Source: Patescibacteria group bacterium (lineage in GTDB: Bacteria; Patescibacteriota; Patescibacteriia; Patescibacteriales; WJLG01). Taken from it: a stretch of DNA of 64,000 nt. The translations under genes were made by a program, and so were the position numbers. Below the pieces are notes generated by a model. It was not told the origin of the DNA. It worked only from the letters and a program-made list of their open reading frames with translations, and made no database searches. Below are positions 6,139 to 63,287 of this stretch, in pieces (positions within the stretch are counted from its first letter, which is position 1; the number at the start of each line of letters is the position of its first letter). The DNA is taken from contig JAQUPS010000006.1 in assembly GCA_028716485.1 (NCBI GenBank), positions 651 through 64,650 on the forward strand, in the 5' to 3' direction.

Positions 6139-7599
6139 ATGGCACAGACCAAAGAAAATTACGCCTACGGCGACAATGGACTCTACCTGCAGATGAATCA
6201 GTCCGGGAAAAACGCGAACGATGCCGGCGGTTTTCGCGACACGATCAACGCGGCCGAAACCATCGGAATTTTAAAACCGGTTTTCTTGGATGATGCCACT
6301 GACAACTGGAAGTATGCCGATGCCGATGATACTGCCCGCCTAAAATTTGACGGCTTCAGTTTGGCGGCCGGGTCGGCAGGCGTGGCGATGCCGGCGCAAT
6401 GCTCGGGCGTGGTCCGCGGATTATCTTCGCTCGACCCTGGCAAAAAATACTACGTCCAGGATGACGGCACGATCGGAATTGTGCCCGGCACTAATTTGAT
6501 TTTAGTCGGCATCGCGATTAGTGCGACCGAACTCTTGATCATAAAAATAAATACGCCAGGCGATAAAGATTTTTTCGGCGACGGATCGGATGGTGACGTC
6601 ACGATCAGCGGCAACACAACTCTCAGCCGCGATATGTACTACAATAACCTGACGATCAATAATGGCGTTTGGTTAAATCCCGCCGGCTTCAAAATTTTTG
6701 TCAGAAATAAATTGACAAATAACGGCACGATCAAATCCAATGGCGGAGATGCCGGCGGTGGTGGCAATGGAACGAGTGCCAACCCTGGCAGTGGATCACC
6801 GGGCGGTACAGCTGGAACCGCAGGCGCAGCGGCTCACGGTGATGCTTCCCTGAAGGGATCTAAACCCGGACAGCCGGGAGGTGTTGGCGGATCGGGTGGG
6901 TACGCTGGGTCAAACGGTAGCGCGGCCGCGGCTCCAGGAAATGGAGTTCAGGAAACAAATTCATTGAGCCCGGTTGCCGGCGCAAGTTCTGGACCAGGTG
7001 GACAGGGCGGGGGATCAACTAGCAATAGCGGTGGTGGTTATTCGAGCAGCACTTCCGGGTCTGCTGCAGCTGCTCCGAATATCGGAGTAAGATGCAAAGC
7101 GATGATACAGCGCTTCCTAGAGGCAGCCGATGCAGTTTTAAGTTCATTCTCAAGATACGCCGGATCAAGTTCTGCCGGCGGAGGCGGTGGCGGCGGAGGT
7201 GGAGCGGGAACGAATGGGCAAGGATCTTATGCCGCTTCAGGCGGAGGCGGTGGCGGATCAGGTGGAAACGGCGGAAACATTTTTATTGCTGCGTATATCT
7301 TGATCAATAACGGAACCATCCAGGCCAACGGCGGAGCGGGCGGCAATGGCGGAAACGGCGGAAACGGATACAGTGATGGAAACGGTGCTGGCGGAGGCGG
7401 TGGCGGCGGAGCGGGCGGATCAGGAGGCCTAATTTATCTGTCATATTGGCTAATATCAACGCTCGGAACTGTTCAGGCGCTCGGCGGTACCAAAGGACTT
7501 AAGGGATCAAAAGGATCTCTCGGCCACGTCGCGGCGGCAGATGGAACCGACGGATCAGATGGTACAGCGGGAACCGTGACCTACAAGCAAATCTTATAA
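6139..7599 (+). CDS. glycine-rich tail fibre-like protein
   Basis: 486 aa with a globular N-terminus, then long GGxGGNGG tracts interleaved with NNGTI(K/Q)(S/A)NGG motifs. Last gene of the tail module. Confidence 0.6.
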   Translation: MAQTKENYAYGDNGLYLQMNQSGKNANDAGGFRDTINAAETIGILKPVFLDDATDNWKYADADDTARLKFDGFSLAAGSAGVAMPAQCSGVVRGLSSLDPGKKYYVQDDGTIGIVPGTNLILVGIAISATELLIIKINTPGDKDFFGDGSDGDVTISGNTTLSRDMYYNNLTINNGVWLNPAGFKIFVRNKLTNNGTIKSNGGDAGGGGNGTSANPGSGSPGGTAGTAGAAAHGDASLKGSKPGQPGGVGGSGGYAGSNGSAAAAPGNGVQETNSLSPVAGASSGPGGQGGGSTSNSGGGYSSSTSGSAAAAPNIGVRCKAMIQRFLEAADAVLSSFSRYAGSSSAGGGGGGGGGAGTNGQGSYAASGGGGGGSGGNGGNIFIAAYILINNGTIQANGGAGGNGGNGGNGYSDGNGAGGGGGGGAGGSGGLIYLSYWLISTLGTVQALGGTKGLKGSKGSLGHVAAADGTDGSDGTAGTVTYKQIL

Positions 7600-17592: not shown

Positions 17593-18045
17593 TTAGGCGA
17601 TTTTTAATCTTTCCGCGAAAGCGGCGGCGCGGGATAGGTCTTTTTCATTCGGGCGGCCTTTGCCGGTTCCGCCGATTAGTTTGAATGGCCCGACAGTGTC
17701 GAACCCAATGCAATCGAATTTTCCAGTAATCACGAAATTTTTAGACTTTAATTTTTTAATGGTTTTTTGGGCGTATAGAAGCGGAATCGGCGAGCCGTGA
17801 GTAAAAAATATAAAAGCTTTTTTACCTGACATATCCGACAGGCTATCGATAAATTTATTTATTGACGCGTGGAATTTCCAGAAATAGATTCCCGAACCAA
17901 AACCGATCAAATCATAATCTTTTAAATTTGCCAAAACAACTTCGTGCGGCCTTTTTAAATCTGCTTCCAAAATTTCGGCGATTTTTTTGGCGACTTTTTC
18001 CGTATTGCCGTGATGGATTGATTCATAGATTATTAATGTTTTCAT
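17593..18045 (-). CDS. flavodoxin-like protein
   Basis: MKTLIIYESIHHGNTEKVAKKIAEIL. The track ORF is extended upstream (to 18087) by read-through into a palindromic repeat. Confidence 0.7.
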   Translation of the reverse strand: MKTLIIYESIHHGNTEKVAKKIAEILEADLKRPHEVVLANLKDYDLIGFGSGIYFWKFHASINKFIDSLSDMSGKKAFIFFTHGSPIPLLYAQKTIKKLKSKNFVITGKFDCIGFDTVGPFKLIGGTGKGRPNEKDLSRAAAFAERLKIA

Positions 18046-18055
18046 ACTGCATTTT

Positions 18056-18088
18056 ATAGATCCCTCGCCCGGGGCTCGGGATGACAAA
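18056..18088. repeat. family-1 palindromic element, solo half copy
   Basis: atagatccctcgcccggggctcgggatgacaaa is the reverse complement of the tttgtcatcc...ggatctat unit seen at 27339 and 37409. Confidence 0.65.
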
Positions 18089-18147
18089 ATAATAAAAATT
18101 TTTAATTCTTCTTTCCCTGCCGGCAGGCAGGTTAATTCTTAATTGGT

Positions 18148-18864
18148 TTACCCGACAATCACTACAAACTCCCCTCTTTGATCGTCGGGCGTAGCGGTGA
18201 TTTGGGAAATTATGTTATCAATGTCGCCGCGATAGACGGTTTCGTGCATTTTGGAAATCTCGCGGGCGACAACCACGCTTTCCAAATTTTTACGCTTTTT
18301 CGCGACTTCTTCCTCGTCGGATAAGCTTGTGCTTTCTTTCATCGTTTTTAATTCATTTAAGAATTTGACGATACGATGCTTGGATTCATAAATCACGACA
18401 GGGTATTCGCTGTCTAAAATTCTTCTGATAAAAGTTTGCCGGCCTTTTTTATGAGGCGGAAAACCCATGAAGATGAATTTGTCGGTCGGAATGCCGGAAA
18501 TCGACAGTGCCGCGGTGACGGCTGACGGGCCGGGCACGGATTCGATTTTCATATCCTCGCCAAAATGTTCCAAAACTTTTGAAACCAAAACTCCGCCCGG
18601 GTCGGAAATGCCCGGTGTGCCGGCGTCGGTGACTAGCGCCAGATTCTTCCCCTGCTCCAATAATTTAATGATCTGGTCGACTTTGATATCGTCCGAATGC
18701 TGATGATAGGAAATCCGCGGCGTTTTGATATTATAATGATCCAGCAGAACGCCGGTCGTGCGCGTGTCTTCGCACAAAATAAAATCAACCTCACCGAGGA
18801 TGCGAAGCGCGCGCATGCTGATATCTTCCAGGTTGCCGATGGGAGTGCCGACTATGTACAACAT
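18148..18864 (-). CDS. rsmI: 16S rRNA (cytidine1402-2'-O)-methyltransferase
   Basis: MLYIVGTPIGNLEDISMRALRILGEVDFILCEDTR, with a tetrapyrrole-methylase fold signature. Confidence 0.9.
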   Translation of the reverse strand: MLYIVGTPIGNLEDISMRALRILGEVDFILCEDTRTTGVLLDHYNIKTPRISYHQHSDDIKVDQIIKLLEQGKNLALVTDAGTPGISDPGGVLVSKVLEHFGEDMKIESVPGPSAVTAALSISGIPTDKFIFMGFPPHKKGRQTFIRRILDSEYPVVIYESKHRIVKFLNELKTMKESTSLSDEEEVAKKRKNLESVVVAREISKMHETVYRGDIDNIISQITATPDDQRGEFVVIVG

Positions 18865-24880: not shown

Positions 24881-24979
24881 TTGTGGGAGACTATTTAATG
24901 CTAAATGCTAAATGCTAAATTATATACAATGATTTAGCATTTAGCATTCATCGTTTAGCATTTTGTCGATTTACCACAA
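24881..24979. repeat. 7-nt periodic inverted repeat (aatgcta / atttagc units) closed by ttgtgg/ccacaa
   Basis: Left arm 24897-24920 and right arm 24932-24962. Same unit as 28086-28131. Confidence 0.75.
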
Positions 24980-26681: not shown

Positions 26682-26796
26682 GTCGGCAAAAATCAGCCCG
26701 AAACGCAAGCAAATCAAGGCAGTGTCAAGATTGCGGCATGAGCTCTAATCTGATAATATTATGATACGAGATTCAATTATTAAATCATCAAAAAAT

Positions 26797-27330
26797 ATGG
26801 ACTTCAAAAAAAATCCGCGGCAAATAAGATTGTCTTGGGACGAATTGTTTATGAATCTGGCCGTGATGGTTTCCAAACGCACTGCCTGCAAATTCCACGA
26901 GGCAGGAGCGGTCTGCGTGGACAAAAATCACCGGGTGATTTCTACCGGCTATAACGGAGCGACCGAGGGCGATCTGCATTGTCTGGAAGCCGGCTGCGCC
27001 AAAGTCGACGGTGATCCGATTACCAAGCAATTAAAACGCTGCCGCGGCGCTCACGCCGAGGCCAATGCCATCTGCAACGCCCTGGACGGCTCGCGTCTGC
27101 GCGGCGCCACTTTATATTCAGTATTATTCCCCTGCTATGACTGTATGAAAACGATCAATAATGCCGGCATCAAAGAAATCGTCTATAAAGATATTTATGA
27201 ACGGATTAAGACTGGCGGCGAAGGAAAAGAGGAAGAAAACGAATCGGCCGAACTGGCCAAAGCGCGCGGCATCGTCATCCGCCGTTATAGCGGGCCGATC
27301 TTCTGCAATTTGGACTGCTGCAATAAATAA
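26797..27330 (+). CDS. comEB: dCMP deaminase (ComEB/deoxycytidylate deaminase)
   Basis: GAHAEANAI and PCYDCMK zinc-binding motifs. Start taken at MDFKKNP. Confidence 0.85.
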   Translation: MDFKKNPRQIRLSWDELFMNLAVMVSKRTACKFHEAGAVCVDKNHRVISTGYNGATEGDLHCLEAGCAKVDGDPITKQLKRCRGAHAEANAICNALDGSRLRGATLYSVLFPCYDCMKTINNAGIKEIVYKDIYERIKTGGEGKEEENESAELAKARGIVIRRYSGPIFCNLDCCNK

Positions 27331-27338
27331 TCCTGCTA

Positions 27339-27474
27339 TTTGTCATCCCGAGCCTCTGGCGAGGGATCTATATTGGACAAATGTAGGGCCTCAAAGACCA
27401 AAATTTTTGCCACCTAAGTGATTATTGTTTGGATAATAGATCCTTCTCCGCCAGGGGCGGATCAGGATGACAAA
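27339..27474. repeat. family-1 composite palindromic element (MITE-like, 136 bp)
   Basis: tttgtcatcccgagcctctggcgagggatctat (27339-27371) and its inverted partner (27436-27474) flank a 64-nt core containing aaatttttg. Confidence 0.7.
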
Positions 27475-27481
27475 AAAATTC

Positions 27482-28078
27482 ATGATATTAGGAATTAAAA
27501 AGCTCCACGAATTGGTAGAGGAAATAAAATTAGTGGAAGGTTTGTGCGAGCGGGAAATGAACAATCCCGAAGGCGCGGGCTTTGATTTACGCTTGAGCGA
27601 GGTTTATCAGCTCGAGGGTGACGGATTTTTGGGCGTGGAAGAGCGGCAAACTCCGGCGGCTAAATTGATTGCTAAAGCAAAAAATTCCCCTCTCGAGAGG
27701 GGTGGCCAGCCCCTGGCTGGACGGGGTGTGTTAAACGCCGGCGATTCAGAAGATGCTTTCGTTTTTCAACCCGGCAAATATTATTTGATCAAGACGATGG
27801 AAAAAGTTAATCTGCCGACCAATCTTTCCGGCATTATTTTTCCCCGCACTACGATGTTCCGTTCCGGAATCGGGATGTTCAACGGCATAGTCCAGCCTGG
27901 CTATTCCGGCGAATTGACTTTCGGCGTCTGTAACCTTGGCCAATCCAATATTAAAATTTCTTTTGGCGCCCGCGTCGCCCATATCACTTTCCACGAAGTC
28001 CTCGGCGAGGGCAATCAATACAAAGGCCAATGGCAAGGCGGCCGCGTTTCTACCGGAGCCAAGGAAACTCAAATATGA
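27482..28078 (+). CDS. dcd: dCTP deaminase / dUTPase-superfamily protein
   Basis: MILGIKKLHELV start, GFDLRL, PRTTMFRSGI, VQPGYSGELTFGVCN. The track start at 27467 lies inside the repeat. Confidence 0.75.
   Translation: MILGIKKLHELVEEIKLVEGLCEREMNNPEGAGFDLRLSEVYQLEGDGFLGVEERQTPAAKLIAKAKNSPLERGGQPLAGRGVLNAGDSEDAFVFQPGKYYLIKTMEKVNLPTNLSGIIFPRTTMFRSGIGMFNGIVQPGYSGELTFGVCNLGQSNIKISFGARVAHITFHEVLGEGNQYKGQWQGGRVSTGAKETQI
27681..27736. repeat. family-2 double-hairpin element lying inside the dcd reading frame
   Basis: aaaattcccctctcgagaggggtggccagcccctggctggacggggtgtgtt encodes KNSPLERGGQPLAGRGVL. Confidence 0.55.
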
Positions 28079-28085
28079 AATTAAT

Positions 28086-28131
28086 AATGCTAAATGCTAA
28101 ATTTTTTATTTAGCATTTAGCATTTAGCATT
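28086..28131. repeat. 7-nt periodic inverted repeat (aatgcta / atttagc)
   Basis: Left arm 28086-28102 and right arm 28108-28131. Ends 2 nt before the thyA ATG. Confidence 0.75.
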
Positions 28132-28133
28132 AA

Positions 28134-29123
28134 ATGCAACATCCCGAACAACAATACCTCGACCTAATGCGCGATTTGCTTAAAAATGGCATTGAGCAAG
28201 TCGATGCCGGCACCGGCGTAAAGACTTATTCCCTTTTCGGGCGGCAAATCCGTTTTGATTTAAGCCAAGGCTTCCCGCTTTTGACGACCAAAAAAATATT
28301 TTGGCGCGGAATCGTGGAAGAAGTTTTTTGGTTTTTATCCGGCCAAAATAATATTAAATATTTAGTTGATAAAAATATTCACATTTGGGACGACTATCCT
28401 TACCGCATTTACCGGGAAAAAATGGCAACGGGGCAGGAAAAGGAAATGACCAAAGAGGAATTTATCGCCCAGATCGCCGCCGATAATGATTTTGCCGCCG
28501 AACACGGCGCTTTGCCGCATATTTACGGCGATATGTGGCGTCATTGGCCGACTCGAGCTGGCAAGACGATTGACCAGGTTCAATGGGTCGTCGATACTTT
28601 AAAAAAAGACCCAAGCGCGCATAATGCGCTGGTTAATTCCTGGAATCCCGAATATCTTTATGAAATGGCCGCGCCGGGCGAAGCCTGCCGCTTCCCGATC
28701 TGCCATAATTTATATCAAGTGAGCGTTCGCGGGGATAAATTGTTCCTACAGCTTTATCAGCGCACGGCTGACATATTTTTGGGCGTGCCTTTTAATATCG
28801 CCTCCTATGCGCTTTTGACAATAATTCTGGCGCAGATAATCGGTTATCAGCCGGGCGAATTCATCCATACTTTCGGCGATGTCCATTATTATGAAAATCA
28901 TCGCGAGGCAATCAAAGAACAATTGACCCGCGAACCGCTCCCCTTTCCGACTGTAAAATTAAATTCCAATGTTAAAAATATCGATGATTTCAAGCCGGAA
29001 TCTGTCGAACTTGTCGGTTATGAATCGCATCCGCCGATCAAAGCCGAACTTTCTCCTACCGGCGGCATCGTCGATAAATCCTGGAAAAAATTCGTGCAAG
29101 ATGAGAAGTCGAATAAAAAATAA
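28134..29123 (+). CDS. thyA: thymidylate synthase (ThyA)
   Basis: QQYLDLMRDLL start, FPICHNLYQ active-site Cys, and the DIFLGVPFNIASYALL motif. Confidence 0.95.
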   Translation: MQHPEQQYLDLMRDLLKNGIEQVDAGTGVKTYSLFGRQIRFDLSQGFPLLTTKKIFWRGIVEEVFWFLSGQNNIKYLVDKNIHIWDDYPYRIYREKMATGQEKEMTKEEFIAQIAADNDFAAEHGALPHIYGDMWRHWPTRAGKTIDQVQWVVDTLKKDPSAHNALVNSWNPEYLYEMAAPGEACRFPICHNLYQVSVRGDKLFLQLYQRTADIFLGVPFNIASYALLTIILAQIIGYQPGEFIHTFGDVHYYENHREAIKEQLTREPLPFPTVKLNSNVKNIDDFKPESVELVGYESHPPIKAELSPTGGIVDKSWKKFVQDEKSNKK

Positions 29124-36483: not shown

Positions 36484-37404
36484 TTAATTGCTTAAAAATT
36501 CTTTGACTTTATTTTCCGCGTCGGCTTTTTCATCAAGCCAATATATTTTACGTTTTTTTTCCCAGCGCTTGAACCAGGTCAGCTGTTTCTTGGTGAATTG
36601 GCTGATGGCGCGCTCGAGCAATCCGGCCATCTGGTCATAATCGATTTTTTCCTGCAGATATTGAGCGATAAATTTATATTCCAAGCCGAAAGATTCCAGT
36701 CTTTCCCAGGACAAGCCAGTCTTATCATGCAGGTCGCTGACTTCCTGGATCATATTTTCTTTTTCCAAACGATCAATCAGCCGGCGATGGATGCGTTCGG
36801 CCAGGATTTCTTTGGGGTAAGTAAGACCGAGGAGAATAAAATCGTAAGACGCTGGGCGCTGGGCGCTGGGCGCAAGAATTCGGGAAGTATCCTGAATCGC
36901 TATTTCTAAATATCTTATCAGTCGCCGCTTATTATTCTTATCGCTATTGTTTAATTTTTCCGCAAAGGCCGGATTTTTTGATTTAAGTTCGGCGAACAAT
37001 TCTTCGGCGCTCTTGTTTTCATTTTTCGCGCGCGCGGCCCTATCCGGCTTAATGTCAGTCAGCTGATAATTTTCCACCACGGCTTCAAGATATTGGCCGG
37101 AACCGCCGACGATTATCGGCAGCTTGCCCCTTTGTAAAATATCGTCGATGGCGGCAAAGGCTTGTTTCTGATATTCGGCCACGCTGAAAATTTGCTTCGG
37201 GTCGGCGATGTCGATGAGATGATATTTTATTTCTCCGTATTCCTGCAAATCTTTTCCCGAGCCGACATCCAGGCCGCAATAAACTTGCCGTGAGTCGGCG
37301 GAAATTATTTCGCCGTTAAATTGGCGCGCCAAAGCAACGCCGAGAGCTGTTTTTCCGCTGGCAGTTGTGCCTAAAATTACAATTACTTTATTATCGTTTT
37401 TCAT
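36484..37404 (-). CDS. miaA: tRNA dimethylallyltransferase
   Basis: VIVILGTTASGKTALGVALA P-loop and SADSRQVY. The track ORF is extended to 37530 through the repeat element; an alternative start is at 37431. Confidence 0.9.
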   Translation of the reverse strand: MKNDNKVIVILGTTASGKTALGVALARQFNGEIISADSRQVYCGLDVGSGKDLQEYGEIKYHLIDIADPKQIFSVAEYQKQAFAAIDDILQRGKLPIIVGGSGQYLEAVVENYQLTDIKPDRAARAKNENKSAEELFAELKSKNPAFAEKLNNSDKNNKRRLIRYLEIAIQDTSRILAPSAQRPASYDFILLGLTYPKEILAERIHRRLIDRLEKENMIQEVSDLHDKTGLSWERLESFGLEYKFIAQYLQEKIDYDQMAGLLERAISQFTKKQLTWFKRWEKKRKIYWLDEKADAENKVKEFLSN

Positions 37405-37408
37405 ATTC

Positions 37409-37584
37409 TTGTCATCCTGCTTGTCCTCCATAGCCTTAGCGAAGGGGGAAGCGCCACGCGAAGGATCTATCATAGAGAATGAGCGTCGCATAGGCGAAAG
37501 AAATTTTTGTTTTGGAAGTCCGGAGTTCATCTAAAATAGATCCTTCGTCGTCAGCCGAAGCGGCCAACTCCTCAGGATGACAAA
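37409..37584. repeat. family-1 composite palindromic element (MITE-like, 176 bp)
   Basis: ttgtcatcctg...gaaggatctat (37409-37470) and the inverted atagatcc...ctcaggatgacaaa (37536-37584) flank a 65-nt core containing aaatttttg. Confidence 0.7.
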
Positions 37585-38891
37585 TGAACACCGGTTAAAC
37601 CAAAATCGCGCACTTCCGTAATTTTAACTCTAACGAATTTTCCTTGCAAATTTTCCTTGGCCGAGCCGAGAATTTTTACCGTGACGAATTGCTCGTTTTT
37701 CCCCAGCCATTCCCCTCTTTTATTTTTTTCTTGAACTAAAACTTTTATAGCTTTATTTAAATATCTTTGATTATTTTTCCAAGCTGTTTGGCTTAAAATT
37801 TTATTCAAAGCTTCCTCGCGGCGCTGTTTTTCCGCGGCGCTAACATTGTCTTTCAGCTTGGCTGCCGCCGTACCCGGCCGCGAACTGAAACGCGCCAGAT
37901 AAACCATATCGTATTCCGCCTGACGCATCAATTTTTCTGTCTTGGCGAATTGCTTTTTAGTTTCTCCGGGAAAACCGACGATCAAATCGCTCGACAAGCC
38001 GATTTCCGGTATTGCCTTCCTCAGCGCCTTAACCAAGCTTAAATAATGTTTGACCGTATATTTGCGGTTCATCGCCGCCAAAATCCGATCATCGCCGGAC
38101 TGGGCGGGCAAATGGATTTGCCGGCAAATCTGGCGATTATTTTTCATCGCCGCGATTAATTCCGCGCTCATATTTTTCGGATGCGAGGTAAAAAATCTCA
38201 GCCAAAAATCGCCCGTCAATTTAGCCGCGGCAACCAGCAATTCGGGAAAATTTATTTCTTCGCCGGCTTTTTTATTGGGAAAAAATTTCAAATCAGCCTT
38301 GGCCGCCTTAATTTTATAGCTATTGACATTTTGAGCGATTAGAATTATTTCTTTGAAGCCTTGTTTGATAAATTTTTGCGCTTCGGCGATAATATCGCTT
38401 GCCGAGCGGTAAATTTCGCGGCCGCGCGCATAGGGCACGACGCAATATGAACAAAAATTATCGCAGCCATTGCCGATGGGAATAAAAACGGAAAATTTTG
38501 AATTGACTTTGGGATTTATTTCCAAATAATCATTTGTTTTATTTATTTTCTTAACCAGACCTAATTCTCGATACAGTTCGGGCAGATTTTTTATCGGCAA
38601 AAAAATATCAACAACTTTGTCTAATCTTCTTCGCACGTCTTTGCGTTCGGCTAAACAGCCGGTCAGAATTATCTTGACGAGCGGATTCTTTTCCCTGATT
38701 TCCGGAATCAAACCATAATTGCGGTCTTCGGCCTTTTGCCGGATTCCGCAAGTATTTAAAATCACCAAGCCGGCTTTGACGCGGTTTGGTTCGGACTTAA
38801 AGCCGTATGATTCTAAATAGGCGGCAATCCGTTCGCTGTCGGAAATATTCATCTGACAGCCGATAGTGATGATATGATATGTCTTTTTCAC
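37572..38891 (-). CDS. miaB: tRNA-2-methylthio-N6-dimethylallyladenosine synthase
   Basis: YHIITIGCQMNISDSE (UPF0004), radical-SAM GCDNFCSYCVVP, C-terminal TRAM. The last 4 codons lie in the repeat. Confidence 0.9.
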   Translation of the reverse strand: MKKTYHIITIGCQMNISDSERIAAYLESYGFKSEPNRVKAGLVILNTCGIRQKAEDRNYGLIPEIREKNPLVKIILTGCLAERKDVRRRLDKVVDIFLPIKNLPELYRELGLVKKINKTNDYLEINPKVNSKFSVFIPIGNGCDNFCSYCVVPYARGREIYRSASDIIAEAQKFIKQGFKEIILIAQNVNSYKIKAAKADLKFFPNKKAGEEINFPELLVAAAKLTGDFWLRFFTSHPKNMSAELIAAMKNNRQICRQIHLPAQSGDDRILAAMNRKYTVKHYLSLVKALRKAIPEIGLSSDLIVGFPGETKKQFAKTEKLMRQAEYDMVYLARFSSRPGTAAAKLKDNVSAAEKQRREEALNKILSQTAWKNNQRYLNKAIKVLVQEKNKRGEWLGKNEQFVTVKILGSAKENLQGKFVRVKITEVRDFGLTGVHLSS

Positions 38892-45530: not shown

Positions 45531-45707
45531 AATCCGAAACGAATTAGAAATACTAAGCGCGAAATTCGAAATAAATTGTTATCAACAAGATATAGCGTAA
45601 ATTTTGGAGCTTCAGCCGTTTCGGATTTTGTATTTCGTTTTTCGGATTTACGAAGTTCGTAGTATTCGGATATTTTGTAGATTCGGATTATATTTTTTTA
45701 TTCCGCG
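45531..45707. repeat. periodic inverted repeats (aatccga/tcggatt and tacgaa/ttcgta units)
   Basis: aaatccgaaacgaatt...cgaaattcgaaat on the left faces gtttcggatttt...tttcggatttacgaagttcgtagtattcggat...attcggatt on the right. Confidence 0.65.
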
Positions 45708-48077: not shown

Positions 48078-48815
48078 CTAAGCCCATCTGGCGCTTAAGA
48101 ATATCAAAAGCAAAAAAATAAATCCGGATGCCAAGTATAATTTAACGCTGCGGCCAGTTAATTTTTCCGCCAGCGATAATTTAACGAAACTGATTAGCAA
48201 ATAATAGCAGATGACGGCGATCAATCCCAAGGCATTGTAATTAAAAGGCAGAAAATAAACGGCCCAGGCAAGCTCGACGAGCAGAAGTCCGGCCAGAAAG
48301 GCATAGGCGAGCATATTTTCGGCCTGGATTTTATTGGCCCACAGAATTTGATAAATTATCAGAATCATTGCCGCGCCCGAGCATAAAATCAAGAGCCAGA
48401 TCGGCAAACCAAGAAAAGATTCCAAGCCGTAAATAACCGAAAAGCAGAAAAAGACGGTCAGCAGGTTGCCATAAGCGGAAATATTTTCCAAAAAATCCCG
48501 CTGGGCGCCGCGATAAATATTTTTTAAATAAAAGTAGGTGAAAAAAAGATTCAGAACGAACAAAAGATGGATCAAGGTATGATTGACGGCCAATAACGAA
48601 TAAGCGGCCAAGGAGCTGGAAAAGAGAATGGGGAAAATCGAAAAATTCCAAAAATCTCTGCTGATAATTTTTTTTCCGGTTATTATCCGCACCGCCAGCA
48701 AGAGCAATAAATCGGAAATGAGTATCACGGCGTAAAATAAATTAGCCTTGAAGAAAAACACTTCAAAGAGGATGAAATTCAACAACGGAGTAATGATAAT
48801 TACAAAGTAAACCAT
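48078..48815 (-). CDS. multi-pass membrane protein, hypothetical
   Basis: 245 aa with ~8 TM helices. Confidence 0.55.
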   Translation of the reverse strand: MVYFVIIITPLLNFILFEVFFFKANLFYAVILISDLLLLLAVRIITGKKIISRDFWNFSIFPILFSSSLAAYSLLAVNHTLIHLLFVLNLFFTYFYLKNIYRGAQRDFLENISAYGNLLTVFFCFSVIYGLESFLGLPIWLLILCSGAAMILIIYQILWANKIQAENMLAYAFLAGLLLVELAWAVYFLPFNYNALGLIAVICYYLLISFVKLSLAEKLTGRSVKLYLASGFIFLLLIFLSARWA

Positions 48816-48842
48816 TTTTTATAACAAGGTATAATTATACCA

Positions 48843-49095
48843 TTAATTAATCGACCAATTGTATTTCAATTTAATCACAGCTTGATTGATTTTATTCGGT
48901 TGACATTCAAATCCATTGAATATCACGCCTATTTTGTTACTACATCAAGCCTGATTTTTGTGTTTCAAACATTGCGCCATCGCTATATCCCGCATGGCTT
49001 TTTCCGCATCAATTCTTCAGCCGTATTTTTCCTGAAAATTTTTAATATCAGTCAAATTACTGATTATGTATTTATTAATGTCAATTAAGGTGATC
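48843..49095 (-). pseudogene. degraded 4th copy of the C-terminal cassette
   Basis: Minus-strand reading gives MITLIDINKYIISNLTDIKNFQEKYG*RIDAEKAMRDIAMAQCLKHKNQA*CSNKIGVIFNGFECQPNKINQAVIKLKYNWSIN*. It has two in-frame stops and is truncated after KLKYN. Confidence 0.7.
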
Positions 49096-49108
49096 ATTTA
49101 TAATCTTT

Positions 49109-49225
49109 TAAAATCCTGAAAAATTATGAATAATATCCTTATAGTGAAAAAAGGCAAAATTGAAATTAAAATCATCACTAAAAACGAAAACAAAATAATT
49201 GTTATTTTTTTTCTTTAAACTTTCC
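49109..49225 (-). CDS. 38-aa remnant of a small ORF (MESLKKK...)
   Basis: My own translation. The N-terminus resembles MENLKKK of 50231-50551. Below the ORF-track size threshold. Confidence 0.3.
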
Positions 49226-49232
49226 ATAAATT

Positions 49233-49550
49233 TTAAAATTTACTGATTAAATATTTTATATCCTCTTTTATTATATTATACCCCGCCTGATTAATCCATT
49301 TAGTGAGCAAAAACACATTCAATTTGGTTAAAATCAGATTGTATTTTAATTTAATTAACGCTTGATTAATTTTGCTAAACTGATATTCGAACCTGTCAAA
49401 TGTTTTTCCAATTTTTGCATCGCACCAGGCTTGATTTTTATGCTTCAAACATTGCGCCATGGCTTTGTCCCGCATTACTTTTTCTTTATCGATTCTCTGG
49501 CCGTATTTTTCCTGGAAATTTTTAATAACTGAGGACTGCGCCGGAACCAA
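49233..49550 (-). CDS. orphan C-terminal cassette 3
   Basis: From IKNFQEKYGQRIDK onward it is collinear with the last ~95 aa of the 1503-aa protein. The 5' homology is shorter than in cassette 2. Confidence 0.55.
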   Translation of the reverse strand: MVPAQSSVIKNFQEKYGQRIDKEKVMRDKAMAQCLKHKNQAWCDAKIGKTFDRFEYQFSKINQALIKLKYNLILTKLNVFLLTKWINQAGYNIIKEDIKYLISKF

Positions 49551-49583
49551 AATAGCTGAATTAAAACAAATAACCCGGCTTTT

Positions 49584-49832
49584 TTAGCCCAAAGGAATTA
49601 AATTGGTGTTACCATTATATAAATTTATTATAGCGAAAACTAATAAAATAAAATAAAATAAAATAAAATAAAATAAATGGCGTTTTTTATCGCCTAACTT
49701 AATCAGCAAAAATGGAAATATGAAAATAAAATAAACAATGTAGATAAAAATATCAAACAAATGAAAGACAAATAACAAAAGAAAAGGAATTAAAAATAAC
49801 AAGAAAATTATAACTTCTTTGTACTTTTTCAT
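49584..49832 (-). CDS. small very hydrophobic F/L/I-rich membrane protein (cassette partner 2)
   Basis: 82-aa ORF 4 nt downstream of cassette 2. Contains the (TTTAT)7 tract. Confidence 0.5.
   Translation of the reverse strand: MKKYKEVIIFLLFLIPFLLLFVFHLFDIFIYIVYFIFIFPFLLIKLGDKKRHLFYFILFYFILLVFAIINLYNGNTNLIPLG
49643..49677. repeat. pentanucleotide microsatellite (ATAAA)x7 inside a CDS
   Basis: Seven perfect units counted. Encodes FYFILFYFILL on the minus strand. Confidence 0.9.
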
Positions 49833-49836
49833 AAAT

Positions 49837-50184
49837 TTAGTTTAATTTATTAATTAAATATTTTACATCCTCTCTAATCATATTATATCCTGCTTGATTA
49901 ATCCATTTTACCCGCAAATATACATCCAATTTGGTTAAAATTAAATTATATTTTAATTTAATCAAGGCTTGATTAAATCTGCTAAGCTGATATTCAATTC
50001 TGTTGAATATCTTTCCGATTTTTGCATCGCACCAGGCTTGATTTTTATGCTTCAGGCATTGAGCCATTGCCTTGTCCCGCATCGTCTTTTCTTTATCGAT
50101 TCTTTGACCATATTTTTCCTGAAAATTTTTAATGTCGGTCAAATCGTTGATTAAACCATTCTTTGCTTCAACTTTTGTGATCAT
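49837..50184 (-). CDS. orphan C-terminal cassette 2
   Basis: 115-aa ORF. DNA homology to the main gene extends upstream of its ATG to ~50222. Confidence 0.6.
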   Translation of the reverse strand: MITKVEAKNGLINDLTDIKNFQEKYGQRIDKEKTMRDKAMAQCLKHKNQAWCDAKIGKIFNRIEYQLSRFNQALIKLKYNLILTKLDVYLRVKWINQAGYNMIREDVKYLINKLN

Positions 50185-50230
50185 TTTCTCGTCATAGGCG
50201 CGATTGACATCGGTAATTGTGCCAATATTT

Positions 50231-50551
50231 TTACAATATCGTCATGTGACCAAAAGCATTTATTAGACCCATGTAGGTATATATATATATAGCAATATAC
50301 GGAATAATTAAAAATAAAATGATAAAAATTATTTTACTGATTATTTTTTTTAAACCAGACAATCTAAACGGAATAAAAAATAAAAATGGGTGAGTAAATA
50401 GTAAATAAAACCCCAGGTATCCGGAAAAATCAAAATTATCACTACGGCCATTTTTACCTAAAAATAGAGCTATAAAAAAAATAACAAAGAAAGACACCCA
50501 ATAAAGCAATGCTGGCGCGAACATTTTAATTTTTTTCTTTAAATTTTCCAT
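50231..50551 (-). CDS. small hydrophobic membrane protein (cassette partner 1)
   Basis: 106-aa ORF 5 nt downstream of the giant gene, with 3 TM helices. Contains a (TA)7 tract at 50278-50291. Confidence 0.55.
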   Translation of the reverse strand: MENLKKKIKMFAPALLYWVSFFVIFFIALFLGKNGRSDNFDFSGYLGFYLLFTHPFLFFIPFRLSGLKKIISKIIFIILFLIIPYIAIYIYTYMGLINAFGHMTIL

Positions 50552-50556
50552 AAGTA

Positions 50557-53500
50557 TTATAACTTACTAATTAAATATTTCATATCACCCCTTATTATAT
50601 TATATCCACTCTGATTTATCCATTTAGTGCGCAAAAACACATCCAATTTGGTTAAAATCAGATTATATTTTAATTTAATCAGGGCCTGATTGATTTTATT
50701 AAGCTGATATTCAAATCTATCAAATATCGTATCTATTTTCTTAGTACACCAGACTTGATTTTTATATTTCAAGCATTGAGCCATGGCCTTATCCCGCATG
50801 ACTTTCCCTTTATCAATTCTTTGACCGTATTTTTCCTGAAAATTTTTAATGTCAGTCAAATCGTTGATTAAACCATTCTTTGCTTCAACTTTTGTGATCA
50901 TTTTCTCGTCATAGGCGCGATTGACATCGGCAATCGTACCATTAATATCAGTGATTACGGAAAAATTAATGATTTGTTCGGCTTGATTTCCGGCTAAATC
51001 TTGAATAGCGATTTTAACCTGATGCGAGCCGAGATTTTGTTTAAATAAATCAATGGTGTTTGAGTTGATAGTCTGGCCATTAAAATAAATTTTGGCGGTG
51101 GCAGTATTAATGCCGGAAAAATTATCAGCTGCGAAATACTCAACGTCCAGCGCGTTATTGCGCAAAACTTCCTGGCCTTCCTGCGGCAACAAAACGCTGA
51201 TAATTGGTTTGATTTGATCTACTTCTATAGTCGCTGTTTGATTCGCTTCTTGATTTCCCGCCTTATCGATGGAACGGTAAATAATATTATGTTCGCCGTC
51301 TCCTGACAAAATTATCTTATCTACATAATCCTGCCAGACCTGGCCGTCATCCAAACTGTATTCAGTTTTCAGAACTCCGGAATTGTCATCGGTGGCGGAT
51401 AATTTTATCTGGACATCGGAAACATAATAGCCGTTATTGCCAGCTTGACCGGAAATGTTTATAGTCGTTTGCGGAGCGGTCAGATCGTTTATTTGTTCAC
51501 CGGTGAGCACCGAATCCGGGGCTATAGTTTTATCAATCGTACCATCACCATTAGAATCAACTTTGGCCAAATACTGCGTTTGGTTATCGGAAATATCATA
51601 TTCAACATTGGCAGCGGCAGAATCAAGCTTGACCGAATCAAAATAAGCGAATTGGATTGGCTGGCTATTTTCTATTTTTTGAATCGTAATACCTAACTCG
51701 CCGCTGGAAGTGGCTTGGTTGACGACGCGGTAAGAGTGGCCGGCTGGCAAAAACGCATATTTATCATTACCTAAAATATCATAAGTTACGCCGGGAATAT
51801 TTTCTTCAATATCACCGTCGACGGTCGGACCGGTGTGATTGCCATTTTCATCATAGATATTTAATTCTACCGGGCTGTGAGAACCGACTTGGGTTCCGTT
51901 AATACTTTTACAAATTCTCTGCTGGTCTTGGCTTTGACCTAAATTTGAATATTGCGAAAAATTAAAATTATTTTCATTACCGCTCAAAATTGACGTGACA
52001 AGTTGGCGAACGCCGTTTGCGCTTGGAATATAGCCATGGGTTGTGGCATTGGTATAATATTGATGGCTACCGAATGGAATGGCGCTTTTTAGAGGCACCG
52101 TGCCATCGCCGTCAACCGGAGGCAATGCCCAATTTCCATTGCCTTTTTTCTCTACCCCGGCATAGGTGGCTTGACCGCAACCGATGATATTATAGTAATT
52201 GTCAGAATTGGGTAGATTGTCTATCCTGCTATGCAATTCATCGTTGACATTGACTGCGTTTATTCCAACATAACCGAGTAAAAAATTATTTCTTCCTTGA
52301 TCGTTTAAAAATGACATTGACTGATCATAATTGAGCGGACTTAAAATGCCAACGTTCTGATTGCCACCGGCGATATCGTAGATGTAGCTACTGGTTATGG
52401 GAAGGCCGGGAATGTCTGATTCAAAATATTTACGGCTGGGAAGAAGTTGATAAATGGAGGGCATGTTTTGGGAAATAGACTTAACTTCATCTGGATTTAA
52501 TCTAAATATCCCAGAAAAATTTATATCCAAATCATCTCCATAATTCAATATTTTAAAAGCGCTTGGCGAACCTAAATGCGGCGTAGCAATATCAATAAAT
52601 TTATCAATGTTATCATTGCCATTTTTATCAATGTAGTCCTTGACCAATAATCCACCCATACTGTGGGCAATAATATCCACTTTTTCTGCGCCGGTTTGAT
52701 TTTTTATATCAATTATTTTTTGTTTTAAAGTTGCTTGCCAAATGGACTGACTGTCACCAGTAGTCGAATCAAGATTCATCCGCCAATCATAGGGAAAAAC
52801 AAATAAATCTTTATTCTCTTCGTAACCATTATTTTCTAATTCTTCTATCAACCCCCTAAAAAAATCTCTATCAATTAAAACTTTTCCTATAATTTCAAGA
52901 TGCACATCTCTAAAAATATCTGCCGAATTTGCTATCGGATTATTCTCGTCTTGATTCCCGTATTGATCCAATTTTAACGCGTTCAAATAACTATCCGACC
53001 CCGGCAATGCCATTAGCGCAAAATTCGGCCAAAGCTCGTCGCCAGAAAGATAATCCTTTAAATAACTCCCCAAAATCCCCGGCACGATGATTACCGGATT
53101 GCGCGCGAGCGAAAAATCCGTAGCAACGGCAGGGTTGCTCATTGTTTGCCAGGCCGAGGCATTGCTTTGCGAATCCACCGCTCTTGCCTGCCAGTGATAT
53201 TGGTCATTTGATAAATTCAATAAAGCTACCGAAGCAATCTGACCGGAAGCGACAAAACTACTGGTCGCGGTGGGCACGCCGGTAAATGCGGTTCCTGATG
53301 GTTGGACTTCAACCTGCAACTGCGTCTGGTTGTTCGCGGGGTTAGTTAGCGTGCCCCGAAACACCACAATGTTTTCTGTGATGCTTACGCCCACGGAAAT
53401 CGGAGTTGTGCCGTCAAACCTAAACTGACCGAGATTAGAAAGTTGGGGAATTGGAATTGTCCCGTTATTTGTTATCGTGATTTGCTCCGAACCGCTAACC

Positions 53501-55068
53501 CCGTAACTATCATTCGCCGTTGCCGTTACGGTCACCGTTCCCGGATTTTTCGCATTAAGCAAGCCAGTTTGATTAATTGTTGCCGAGCCCGTTCCGTTTA
53601 TTACTGTCCATATTATATTTTGATTGCTTGCGCTTGATGGAAATACGGTTGCATTCATTTGCAAGGTATCGCCGCTGACAACGCCATTGATTTGATTCAG
53701 CTTAACTATAAAGCCTTGCCAAGTATAATAATCTGGGTAGGTCACATACGGCGTATCATTATCAACGAATAAAGGGAGGATGGAGGTGTCTGTGCCAAGC
53801 GACCAACCAGAAACATAGGGACTGCCTACGCTTACCCAGTTAGTGCCATCATATTTCATTACAACCGGACGAATATTATATTCACCGCTGATATACGCCG
53901 CGTACGGCGTACCATTCTCAACGAACAACGCTATAGGCCATGTTGCTCCGCCCTGACGAGGAAAATCCGGGTTTCCTACGTTTACCCAACCTGTCCCGTT
54001 GTACTCTATTACATTAATCTTGTAATTGTTTGCCATATTCTCATATGCTAAATACGGAACGCCATCGGATACGGAAAAGGACAGATAATGGCTAAATTGA
54101 TCAACGCTTACATCCGGATTTCCTACGTTTACCCAAATAGTTCCATCGTACTTCTCTACGTTAATATTTCCTCCGTTTGAATATGCTACATACGGAATAC
54201 CGTTGGATACGGATAAAGAAATATATTTTTCTTTATCTGAAAAATTCGGATTTCCTACGTTTTCCCAATTGATTCCATTATACTTCATTACCGTAACACT
54301 GTAATTATTATAGCTATCCAAGAATGCTACATATGGGATGCCATCGGATATTGATAAGGAAGCAACTCTCGCGCCTCCTTGTTGAGAAAAATTAAAATTG
54401 CCTAAATATACCCAATTTGTTCCGTCATACTTCATTACGCCATCAATACAAGCAACAAAAGGAGTGCCATTGTATACGGATAAATAGGAAAAGGAAGGAT
54501 TAAAACCTTTACAAAAATCCGGACCTCCTACGTTTTCCCAATTAATTCCATTATACTTTTTTACAATTATAGAATTGTTCCCCTCCATATATGTTACGTA
54601 TGGGATGTTATTATCAACGAACACTTCGTATGCTTGAGAAAAATCAGGGGTTCCTACGGGTGAAAATGATGCGCCTGCGCCCTCCACAGTTATTTTAACA
54701 ACTGGTATTAAAGACATGGTAATCCCCCTGTCAATCACAGATGAAGCGGTTACAATTATGCCATTGTTTGCCCCCAGGATAATCACATTGTCCCCAATCA
54801 ATATATCAGCAATGGCCGCGCCTTCACTGTTTTTCGTAAAGATAGTCGCGCCCGTGGTATTAATTGTGTAAGCCGTATTACTGTCACTTATCATCGTAAA
54901 ACTATTTCCGTTTAGCGCGCTCACGCTACCAGCTACGGCGGTATCAGCAAATGTAATTTTTGCAAACATAAAAAAACCGCCCACAACAATAGCGGCGGCC
55001 AACACAAAAATAAATTTGCTTGACAGCCATTGACTTCTGAATTTTATCGTGGCATGCATTTTATTCAA
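50557..55068 (-). CDS. giant secreted/surface protein: signal anchor, propeller-like repeats, Ig-like (Big_2-type) domain, LCAT/PGAP1-like alpha/beta-hydrolase (lipase) domain, Ig-like domains, variable helical C-terminal module
   Basis: 1503 aa.
- N-terminal TM (aa 17-40).
- ~7 repeats of the type NG(I/T)PYVAY...KY(N/D)G(I/T)NW.NVG (aa ~140-450).
- Big_2-like region (aa ~460-535).
- Lipase domain aa ~656-1030 (nt 51979-53103) with PGILGS, AHSMGG, DGDGTVP and THGY.
- C-terminal module from aa ~1377 (nt 50940). Confidence 0.85.
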   Translation of the reverse strand: MNKMHATIKFRSQWLSSKFIFVLAAAIVVGGFFMFAKITFADTAVAGSVSALNGNSFTMISDSNTAYTINTTGATIFTKNSEGAAIADILIGDNVIILGANNGIIVTASSVIDRGITMSLIPVVKITVEGAGASFSPVGTPDFSQAYEVFVDNNIPYVTYMEGNNSIIVKKYNGINWENVGGPDFCKGFNPSFSYLSVYNGTPFVACIDGVMKYDGTNWVYLGNFNFSQQGGARVASLSISDGIPYVAFLDSYNNYSVTVMKYNGINWENVGNPNFSDKEKYISLSVSNGIPYVAYSNGGNINVEKYDGTIWVNVGNPDVSVDQFSHYLSFSVSDGVPYLAYENMANNYKINVIEYNGTGWVNVGNPDFPRQGGATWPIALFVENGTPYAAYISGEYNIRPVVMKYDGTNWVSVGSPYVSGWSLGTDTSILPLFVDNDTPYVTYPDYYTWQGFIVKLNQINGVVSGDTLQMNATVFPSSASNQNIIWTVINGTGSATINQTGLLNAKNPGTVTVTATANDSYGVSGSEQITITNNGTIPIPQLSNLGQFRFDGTTPISVGVSITENIVVFRGTLTNPANNQTQLQVEVQPSGTAFTGVPTATSSFVASGQIASVALLNLSNDQYHWQARAVDSQSNASAWQTMSNPAVATDFSLARNPVIIVPGILGSYLKDYLSGDELWPNFALMALPGSDSYLNALKLDQYGNQDENNPIANSADIFRDVHLEIIGKVLIDRDFFRGLIEELENNGYEENKDLFVFPYDWRMNLDSTTGDSQSIWQATLKQKIIDIKNQTGAEKVDIIAHSMGGLLVKDYIDKNGNDNIDKFIDIATPHLGSPSAFKILNYGDDLDINFSGIFRLNPDEVKSISQNMPSIYQLLPSRKYFESDIPGLPITSSYIYDIAGGNQNVGILSPLNYDQSMSFLNDQGRNNFLLGYVGINAVNVNDELHSRIDNLPNSDNYYNIIGCGQATYAGVEKKGNGNWALPPVDGDGTVPLKSAIPFGSHQYYTNATTHGYIPSANGVRQLVTSILSGNENNFNFSQYSNLGQSQDQQRICKSINGTQVGSHSPVELNIYDENGNHTGPTVDGDIEENIPGVTYDILGNDKYAFLPAGHSYRVVNQATSSGELGITIQKIENSQPIQFAYFDSVKLDSAAANVEYDISDNQTQYLAKVDSNGDGTIDKTIAPDSVLTGEQINDLTAPQTTINISGQAGNNGYYVSDVQIKLSATDDNSGVLKTEYSLDDGQVWQDYVDKIILSGDGEHNIIYRSIDKAGNQEANQTATIEVDQIKPIISVLLPQEGQEVLRNNALDVEYFAADNFSGINTATAKIYFNGQTINSNTIDLFKQNLGSHQVKIAIQDLAGNQAEQIINFSVITDINGTIADVNRAYDEKMITKVEAKNGLINDLTDIKNFQEKYGQRIDKGKVMRDKAMAQCLKYKNQVWCTKKIDTIFDRFEYQLNKINQALIKLKYNLILTKLDVFLRTKWINQSGYNIIRGDMKYLISKL

Positions 55069-63126: not shown

Positions 63127-63287
63127 AAACGTTGATCATATAATCCGAACCTACGAAATATCCGAATACTACGAACAAATTAAACAAATTATGACTTCAT
63201 CTTACCATAGTTTACGAAAAATAAAAGAGGGAGATAAAAACATCTTCCTCAATTGAAATAGCTAAAATAATTTTACCAATACAATAT

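Follow-up and report, generated by a model that had tools for sequence, protein, structure and literature searches.

Probable (C/T)GTC-tagged REP-type hairpin units and their head-to-head dimers in a Patescibacteria genome and other bacteria

The CGTC-tagged REPs were defined as a superfamily by Di Nocera, De Gregorio & Rocco (2013, BMC Genomics 14:522; PMC3733652). In the parts of that paper on which we draw, a unit consists of an unpaired CGTC tag, which is often TGTC or CCTC, an uninterrupted stem of 8-9 bp that begins with A-T, T-A "almost invariably", a loop of 4-5 nt and a 3-nt tail with a consensus of about CCA. Dimers are predominantly head-to-head (HH, with the tags outside) and have spacers of 20-100 bp that are conserved in the HH arrangement; heterodimers are frequent. 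The units are found between unidirectional and convergent ORFs, intragenic copies exist, and the same parts of the paper describe the repeats as lacking an associated transposase. The superfamily includes Neisseria dRS3 as well as RPE-4 and RPE-6 of Rickettsia. According to the authors, members with "bulges due to unpaired residues" have possibly been missed.

Here, we analysed a 64-kb stretch of a Patescibacteria genome (the window) and found five copies of a unit of 33-62 nt with the layout TTTGTC-ATCCY-GA-[variable GC hairpin]-GA-RGGAT-CTAT. We think it likely that these are REP-type units of the (C/T)GTC-tagged superfamily, which form head-to-head dimers, are non-autonomous and are copied in trans. 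All five units are intergenic or overlap ORF ends, and four of them form two pairs in which the units are inverted and the TTTGTC ends lie outside. The left half of dimer 1 (27339..27371, plus strand) reads TTTGTC-ATCCC-GA-GCCtctGGC-GA-GGGAT-CTAT and lies 8 nt past the stop codon of a dCMP deaminase gene; the right half (27436..27474, minus strand) has the inner hairpin TCCGCCcctGGCGGA, and dcd starts 7 nt further on (27482). Dimer 2 joins a long degenerate variant (37409..37470, plus strand), in which TGC replaces TGA and a 40-nt insert lies inside, to a unit of the 47-49 nt type (37536..37584, minus strand), whose inner GGAGTTGGCCGCTTCGGCTGACGAC is found too in loci L121, L157 and L158. The fifth unit is a singleton (18056..18088, minus strand) between a methyltransferase gene of the TP_methylase family (18148-18864) and a flavodoxin gene with its true start at 18045 (both by Pfam).

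A preliminary description of the window had reported a family of palindromic elements with two full copies and one solo half, bounded by inverted termini. All three copies are present at the positions and with the motifs given there, and the family of repeated, non-coding palindromes is real, with five units and a frequency above chance. The motif GTCATCCYG occurs seven times in the window, compared to 0.52 expected, and 0 of 100 shuffles reach seven; the seven matches are the five units and two chance matches within coding sequence (at 6457 and 31309) that have no partner half. Similarly, GGATCTAT occurs six times compared to 1.7 expected, and the arms at 18055-18088 and 27339-27372 are 94% complementary across 34 nt. 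Mismatch-tolerant searches of the window found no additional degenerate copies. We read the architecture differently, however: the basic unit is a REP-type hairpin and corresponds to the solo half, each full copy is a head-to-head dimer of such units, which are often unlike, and the 10-mers taken as inverted termini comprise a unit's tag and outer stem rather than the TIRs of a transposon.

The tag is TGTC in all five window units, where it stands unpaired at the 5' end; CGTC variants are present in L157 and other loci. The 3' tail is CTA(T) in the window units and C-Y-R (CCA, CTA, CTG, CCG) in related units. For four of the five window units, the predicted fold is a GC hairpin on top of a 5-bp outer stem, with a 2x2 GA/GA internal loop between them. 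The variant unit at 37409 adopts another fold, and shuffled sequences fold equally well (z = 0.05). Overall, units of 30-62 nt combine the 5-bp stem and the 2x2 GA/GA loop with an apical stem of 2-8 bp and 3-nt loops, and the apical hairpin ranges in length from 7 to about 40 nt. The sequence 5'-Y-GA-R-3' is a context favouring tandem G·A pairs of the sheared kind, and the DNA mini-hairpin d(GCGAAGC) is known for its unusually high stability. Nearest-neighbour energies for DNA and RNA did not discriminate between the top and the bottom strand.

The hairpin is supported by compensatory changes. A pattern search that did not require complementarity gave 49 units whose outer stem is not ATCCY; in 40 of these the outer stem is fully complementary, in seven sequence types. 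Covarying outer stems that the scan had not selected occur in the same contigs, namely ATTCT/AGAAT, ATTCC/GGAAT, ATTTC/GAAAT, ATGCT/AGCAT, AGTCT/AGACT and ATGTT/AACAT. In alignment A2, 92.5% of the cells are paired, compensatory changes affect six of the seven pairs, and none of 500 shuffles has a covariation score as high as observed. In alignment A5, which comprises 33-nt units of the window's own lineage, 97.9% of the cells are paired and four pairs have a compensatory change. The stem starts with A-U in 46/46 and U-A in 42/46 units of alignment A2, and with both in 18/18 units of alignment A5. Furthermore, 99 of 104 ATTCT-type units retain the GA/GA loop, although their selection did not impose it.

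Two motif resemblances were considered and rejected. A hammerhead ribozyme was suggested by the presence of GUC, CUGA and GAA; yet AUCCY and RGGAU pair with covariation, the variants CCGA and UCGA occur, and there is no stem I. The hexamer ATCCTG resembles a MOB-P relaxase nick site or T-DNA border; this hexamer, however, covaries freely (ATTCT, ATGCT, AGTCT and others).

To find the unit elsewhere, we scanned 185,579 species genomes with the exact pattern TTGTCATCCYGA-N(6-36)-GARGGATCTAT. It is present at no fewer than 120 loci in at least ten phyla, including Acidobacteriota, Bacteroidota, several Patescibacteria lineages, Planctomycetota, Chloroflexota and Proteobacteria, as well as Elusimicrobiota, Omnitrophota, Nitrospirota, Chlorobiota and Firmicutes. 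Among the matches listed, the 30-mer TTGTCATCCTGAGCGAAGCGAAGGATCTAT is the form seen most often, and no protein family is found repeatedly beside the units. The unit is thus tied neither to operon junctions, as the preliminary description had supposed, nor to the source genome, since it stands beside unrelated genes in many phyla. In addition, canonical CGTC-1 units (GTCATTCCCGCGAAGGCGGGAATC, translation VIPAKAGI) and CGTC-3 units (GTCATTGCCGGACTTGATCCGGCAATC, translation VIAGLDPAI) are present in unit-bearing contigs; these are the peptides given for CGTC-1 and CGTC-3 in the part of PMC3733652 on which we rely.

In predicted viral contigs of IMG/VR, a strict pattern with the CTAT tail gave no matches. 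The looser pattern TGTCATCCTGA...GAAGGATCT matched at least 171 units in at least 120 contigs (L189-L308), and thus units do occur in predicted viral contigs. Among these matches listed, tails are mostly CTC, CTT or CTG, and none has the TTGTC...CTAT form of the window. As a separate observation, several Acidobacteriota loci (e.g. L007, L008, L036, L053, L080, L092, L112 and L117) have a conserved extension after the unit, GGATCTAT-gcaNtNNgccgg; there, the repeated element thus exceeds the hairpin in length.

REPs are normally lineage-specific; units so nearly identical across at least ten phyla are unusual for them, and this speaks against the REP reading. Alternatively, the TGTC-tagged hairpin with its tandem G·A would be a distinct pan-bacterial, strand-specific structured motif that is recognised and propagated by conserved host-encoded machinery and not by an element-encoded transposase. 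If true, this would explain why near-identical units are spread over at least ten phyla and reach the minimal genomes of Patescibacteria, and why a transposase for CGTC-type REPs has long been lacking. We consider this alternative unlikely.

We next describe the pairs. Among the genome loci listed, 51 of 120 hold a single unit and 66 of 120 hold two or more units within 8 kb. Adjacent units (less than 400 nt apart) are arranged with tags outside in 57 cases, tags inside in 17 and in direct orientation in 17, and seven of these 17 direct calls are nested or overlapping units. Paired units are often unlike in the outer stem; for instance, a Mucilaginibacter pair combines ATCCT and ATGCT at about 30 nt. 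The spacers between paired units in other genomes range from 6 to 100 nt.

In the window, the spacers are AT-rich and both are centred on AAATTTTT. The spacer of dimer 1 (27372..27435, 64 nt, central CAAAATTTTTG) has diverged strongly from the family spacer consensus. The spacer of dimer 2 (37471..37535, 65 nt) resembles the consensus by eye on its minus strand (TTT.GA.GAA.TCCGGACTTC....ACAAAAATTT), with a weak global alignment score (7 vs -2). A metagenome scan for the composite, with the pattern GGATCTRT-N-AAATTTT-N-AYAGATCC, returned 58 loci, among them nine complete and nine half-recognised pairs; a laxer second screen added one further copy, a 57-nt deletion variant. The spacers of the complete pairs are 64 nt long in eight cases and 65 nt in one, and have the sequence TTTGTAGRAA..GGACTTCTTCGACAAAAATTTTT..ATACGAACTTCTC.. 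in common. By eye, the L121 spacer is a member of this family. The spacer core is conserved in length, partly conserved in sequence and roughly palindromic. The inner hairpins fall into shared types, 9-nt GCNCCNNGC and 25-nt GGAG..GCCGC.TCGGCTGA.GAC, which exchange sides with respect to the spacer. The pair plus spacer thus behaves as a discrete repeated unit of about 126-176 bp and, judged by its architecture, is analogous to a BIME or REPIN.

Directly beside the singleton, at 18098-18140, TTAATTCTT is directly repeated on either side of CCTGCCGGCAGG (18116-18127), a 12-nt palindrome without mismatches. A similar sequence, cctgcctgccggtaggcagg, stands in for the left unit in the metagenome dimers L135, L142, L162 and L185. 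The palindrome at 18098-18140 may be another small inserted palindrome.

A composite of defined length with inverted termini, a 64/65-nt core conserved across metagenome contigs and both filled and empty sites is also what a classical MITE would look like, and the preliminary description had called the elements MITE-like. The elements would then derive from an internally deleted IS with a DDE transposase, the 10-mers TTTGTCATCC/GGATGACAAA would be TIRs, and the solo copy would be a broken half. Part of that description stands, namely the discrete pair-plus-spacer composite with gain and loss; its reading of the 10-mers as inverted termini does not. Across genomes, single units are commoner than pairs, paired units frequently differ in the stem, and their spacers vary in length as given above. 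Moreover, each supposed TIR is a self-contained hairpin with covariation, and no transposase family recurs near the units among the genome loci listed. No target-site duplication or flanking direct repeat is visible at the window sites, the metagenome sites or the filled and empty sites compared. We therefore regard a classical MITE as very unlikely.

The constant spacer could also be taken to indicate a function in double-stranded DNA. For the BIMEs of E. coli, a role as binding sites for nucleoid and topology proteins has been proposed. By analogy, the elements might be a DNA-level binding array for such proteins (gyrase, IHF/HU-like), in which the A4T4 at the middle of the spacer would bend the DNA or be bound itself; the analogy rests partly on the discussion in PMC3733652, as far as we draw on it. 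A spacer length of strictly 64/65 nt with central AAAATTTT would fit, and the absence of an orientation bias would suit a function in duplex DNA. We found no binding-site consensus, however, the near-invariant GA/GA mismatch is a single-strand feature that is meaningless in duplex DNA, and the elements are dispensable at orthologous sites (see below). A binding array thus appears extremely improbable, and we continue with the reading as REP-type units.

Dimer 1 lies between a dCMP/cytidine deaminase gene (26761..27330, plus strand) upstream and the dCTP deaminase gene dcd (27482..28078, plus strand; identical to GenBank PHO56_02390, 198 aa) downstream. The neighbours of dimer 2 encode a MiaB-like radical SAM methylthiotransferase (37572..38891, minus strand) and MiaA, a tRNA dimethylallyltransferase (36484..37404, minus strand, true start ATG at 37404); all four genes were assigned by Pfam. 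Since both full copies lie inside what should be tight operons, the preliminary description had suggested insertion at operon junctions or a role as an RNA processing or termination module, and had pointed to the orthologous junctions of relatives. Comparing these junctions, we found presence and absence of elements, with empty sites at both. Relatives show synteny across the dCMP deaminase-(NUDIX)-dcd-thyA operon. The dcd start abuts the deaminase stop in L125, the deaminase-dcd gap is 29 nt in L126, and the NUDIX-dcd gap is 13 nt in L122, in each case without a unit. In L121 (GCA_028707065.1), whose Dcd is 82% identical, a complete pair lies between NUDIX and dcd. At the miaB-miaA junction, L186 has a 1-nt overlap, the P0122 contig a 21-nt gap and L187, from the MAG of L121, a 4-nt gap, and all three are empty. 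One relative, the MAG of L121 and L187, thus has a dimer upstream of dcd and yet an empty miaB-miaA junction. In the window, dimer 2 (176 bp) replaces the last four or five miaB codons and the stop (...DFGLTG-VHLSS* vs ...DFGLTG-SLVKY*).

From the filled and empty orthologous sites, we conclude that the elements turn over at about genus-level divergence, and do so in very small genomes. The empty sites further imply that they are dispensable at the dcd and miaB-miaA junctions. The dimers upstream of dcd in the window and in L121 differ too much in inner hairpins and spacer to tell inheritance from independent insertion. The presence of a dimer upstream of dcd in two relatives at 82% Dcd identity could reflect retention under selection and not neutral or selfish persistence.

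A second intergenic palindromic family was observed in the window, at 24893-24963 and 28085-28135; the dcd-thyA gap holds one of its copies. Its hairpins are AT-rich and consist of three GCTAAAT heptamers together with the complement of these, and there is 100% complementarity between the 28-nt arms 24893-24920 and 28108-28135.

The positions of the dimers raise the possibility that they are a dedicated cis-acting RNA module under selection between functionally paired genes, which might act as a processing site within the operon, as a terminator or as a barrier to 3'-exonucleases. Both dimers do lie between co-transcribed, functionally linked genes, and a dimer stands directly upstream of dcd in two relatives. 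Read as RNA, the whole pairs are predicted to form single-strand folds of very high stability (-56.5 kcal/mol with z = -5.1 and -64.4 kcal/mol with z = -4.4), and compensatory changes preserve the hairpins. In addition, gene 3' ends are preferred: among the genome loci listed, 103 units lie between unidirectional, 56 between convergent and 25 between divergent genes. The orientation with respect to transcription is nevertheless unbiased. Single units between co-directional genes are sense in 55 and antisense in 48 cases among the genome loci listed, and dimer spacers are sense in five and antisense in five, a count that is our reading of the flanking genes and overrides the ORF caller at L121. 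Neither U-tract terminators nor promoters were found in the elements. For an intrinsic terminator, we saw no U-tract, no terminator-like site in dimer 1 and one weak in-unit match in dimer 2. A spacer promoter can be seen by eye in some family copies (TCGACA-17-TATACG), although the scan found none in the window elements and the spacers show the even orientation just given. Furthermore, the units adjoin unrelated genes in many phyla, and no Rfam family matches: there were no matches in the window, 15 loci gave tRNAs only, and a permissive search yielded a chance miRNA match (E = 2).

The unbiased orientation and the absence of promoters and terminators thus do not support a dedicated role in RNA processing or termination. 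Because both junctions are tight (0-29 nt) and free of elements in other relatives, a required role of this kind is unlikely as well. Overall, we judge a dedicated RNA module to be quite improbable, and the corresponding suggestion of the preliminary description is not borne out.

The REP-type units have consequences for annotation. As the preliminary description had anticipated, they supply spurious starts and N-terminal extensions. In the GenBank MiaA of the source MAG (P0121, 329 aa), the first 23 residues are spurious and encoded by the element: the N-terminus MIDPSRGASPFAKAMEDKQDDKN is translated from the REP unit (window 37405-37473, minus strand), i.e. from the variant unit at 37409..37470, and MiaA homologues have 306-310 aa. 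A second start, the ATG at 37530 of MNSGLPKQ..., lies within the spacer of dimer 2, and an ORF at 17593-18087 with a TTG start begins within the singleton unit. The element also supplies the last codons of miaB: the stop TGA (37572-37574) lies inside TCATCCTGA, and the C-terminal ...VHLSS* comes partly from the unit 37536..37584. The units thus create real annotation errors in public CPR genomes, and masking them before gene calling is advisable.

Repeats of other kinds were observed as well. In MAG GCA_028707065.1, GC-rich palindromes are inserted in frame in the genes for MiaA (349 aa) and Dcd (209 aa) (proteins P0130 and P0005; L187 2180-2265); they encode ...SPLERGG(RPLAG/AERRG)RGV... and are reminiscent of the RPEs of Rickettsia; this intragenic palindromic repeat is a family other than the TGTC-tagged unit. 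In the window, the segments 45655-45693 and 63138-63176 form a 39-nt inverted repeat (GTTCGTAGTATTCGGATATTTTGTAGATTCGGATTATAT, 95% complementary) with arms 17.4 kb apart, apparently outside long ORFs and in regions rich in short CGGATT/TTCGGA repeats. Four direct repeats of about 300 nt with 60-82% identity, possibly paralogous small ORFs, span 48751-50854 and adjoin a 1503-aa ORF (50557-55068) with an internal period of about 141 nt.

Taken together, the elements are repeats that neither encode a protein nor move autonomously; intergenic DNA gains and loses them, usually directly at gene ends. The form that is recognised would be the hairpin formed in one strand, as single-stranded DNA or as RNA, and copying would occur in trans by an enzyme encoded elsewhere than beside the units. 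By analogy with GTAG REPs and their RAYT transposases, this enzyme could be of the HUH/Y1 type. Where they are co-transcribed in the dCMP deaminase-dcd and miaB-miaA operons, the dimers would form very stable stem-loops between cistrons. Uncoupled translation and a change in mRNA decay or processing would probably follow, as a by-product and not through a dedicated regulatory module. A tblastn search of 2.35 Mb of DNA bearing the units, with Y1 transposase probes of approximate sequence, found no matches. Among the REPs tabulated beside tnpA_REP genes by Quentin et al. 2018, none is of the GTCATCC type, and the REPs that flank RAYT subclasses 2.6 and 3 there (Bacteroidetes, Acidobacteria, Planctomycetes) were considered and rejected, as the listed sequences are unrelated. 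A literature search for REPs in Patescibacteria found nothing relevant, and a search by the sequence strings of the unit found an irrelevant match only. Turnover in very small genomes sharpens the question of what mobilises the (C/T)GTC class.

Lastly, we compare the elements to known systems. Like the dimers, Neisseria Correia/NEMIS, ERIC and RUP are palindromes of about 100-180 bp that are co-transcribed with their neighbours, differ in presence among relatives and can add codons to ORFs. Those elements, however, are bounded by true TIRs, duplicate their target site (TA in the case of Correia) and have relatives among IS, whereas the ends of the window elements are hairpin units that stand on their own and are found singly too, with no duplication visible. 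In REPIN/RAYT systems, the tag is GT[AG]G and REPs flank a RAYT gene present in a single copy; the units described here have a TGTC tag, no RAYT or other Y1 gene was found nearby, and their sequence is common to many phyla and not lineage-specific. In their form, the units resemble the REPs and BIMEs of E. coli and the REPINs of Pseudomonas. These are likewise imperfect palindromes of about 35 nt with a conserved unpaired tag, they lie in intergenic DNA at gene 3' ends, and their inverted doublets have defined spacers and can form one long hairpin. They can also affect the stability of the mRNA and the translation of the upstream gene, which may hold for the units described here too.

The comparison with the CGTC-tagged superfamily is made on the parts of PMC3733652 introduced above. 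Units of both kinds have the tag and the A-T/T-A stem start, and they share a predominance of dimers with the tags outside, spacers within 20-100 bp in the window dimers, common heterodimers, gene context and overlap with ORF ends. The short tail, C-Y-R in related units, and the lack of a transposase, as judged from the flanking genes at the loci listed and the 2.35 Mb probed, may be further points of agreement. They differ in that the stem of the window units is interrupted by a near-invariant tandem G·A/A·G loop, compared to a published stem of 8-9 bp, and that the apical hairpin measures 7 to about 40 nt, compared to a published loop of 4-5 nt. The tail is CTA(T) here and has a consensus of CCA in the published units. 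With their 5-bp stem, GA/GA loop and variable apical hairpins, the units thus fit none of the four described CGTC families, a distinction that rests on the published stem and loop dimensions of these families. On account of the interrupted stem and the variable apical hairpin, we classify the elements as a structural variant of the known (C/T)GTC REP class in a new host phylum, defined by its near-invariant tandem G·A loop. This transposase-less class, published for five phyla in the portion of the paper used here, is thereby extended to Patescibacteria, Acidobacteriota, Planctomycetota, Chloroflexota and other phyla beyond those five.
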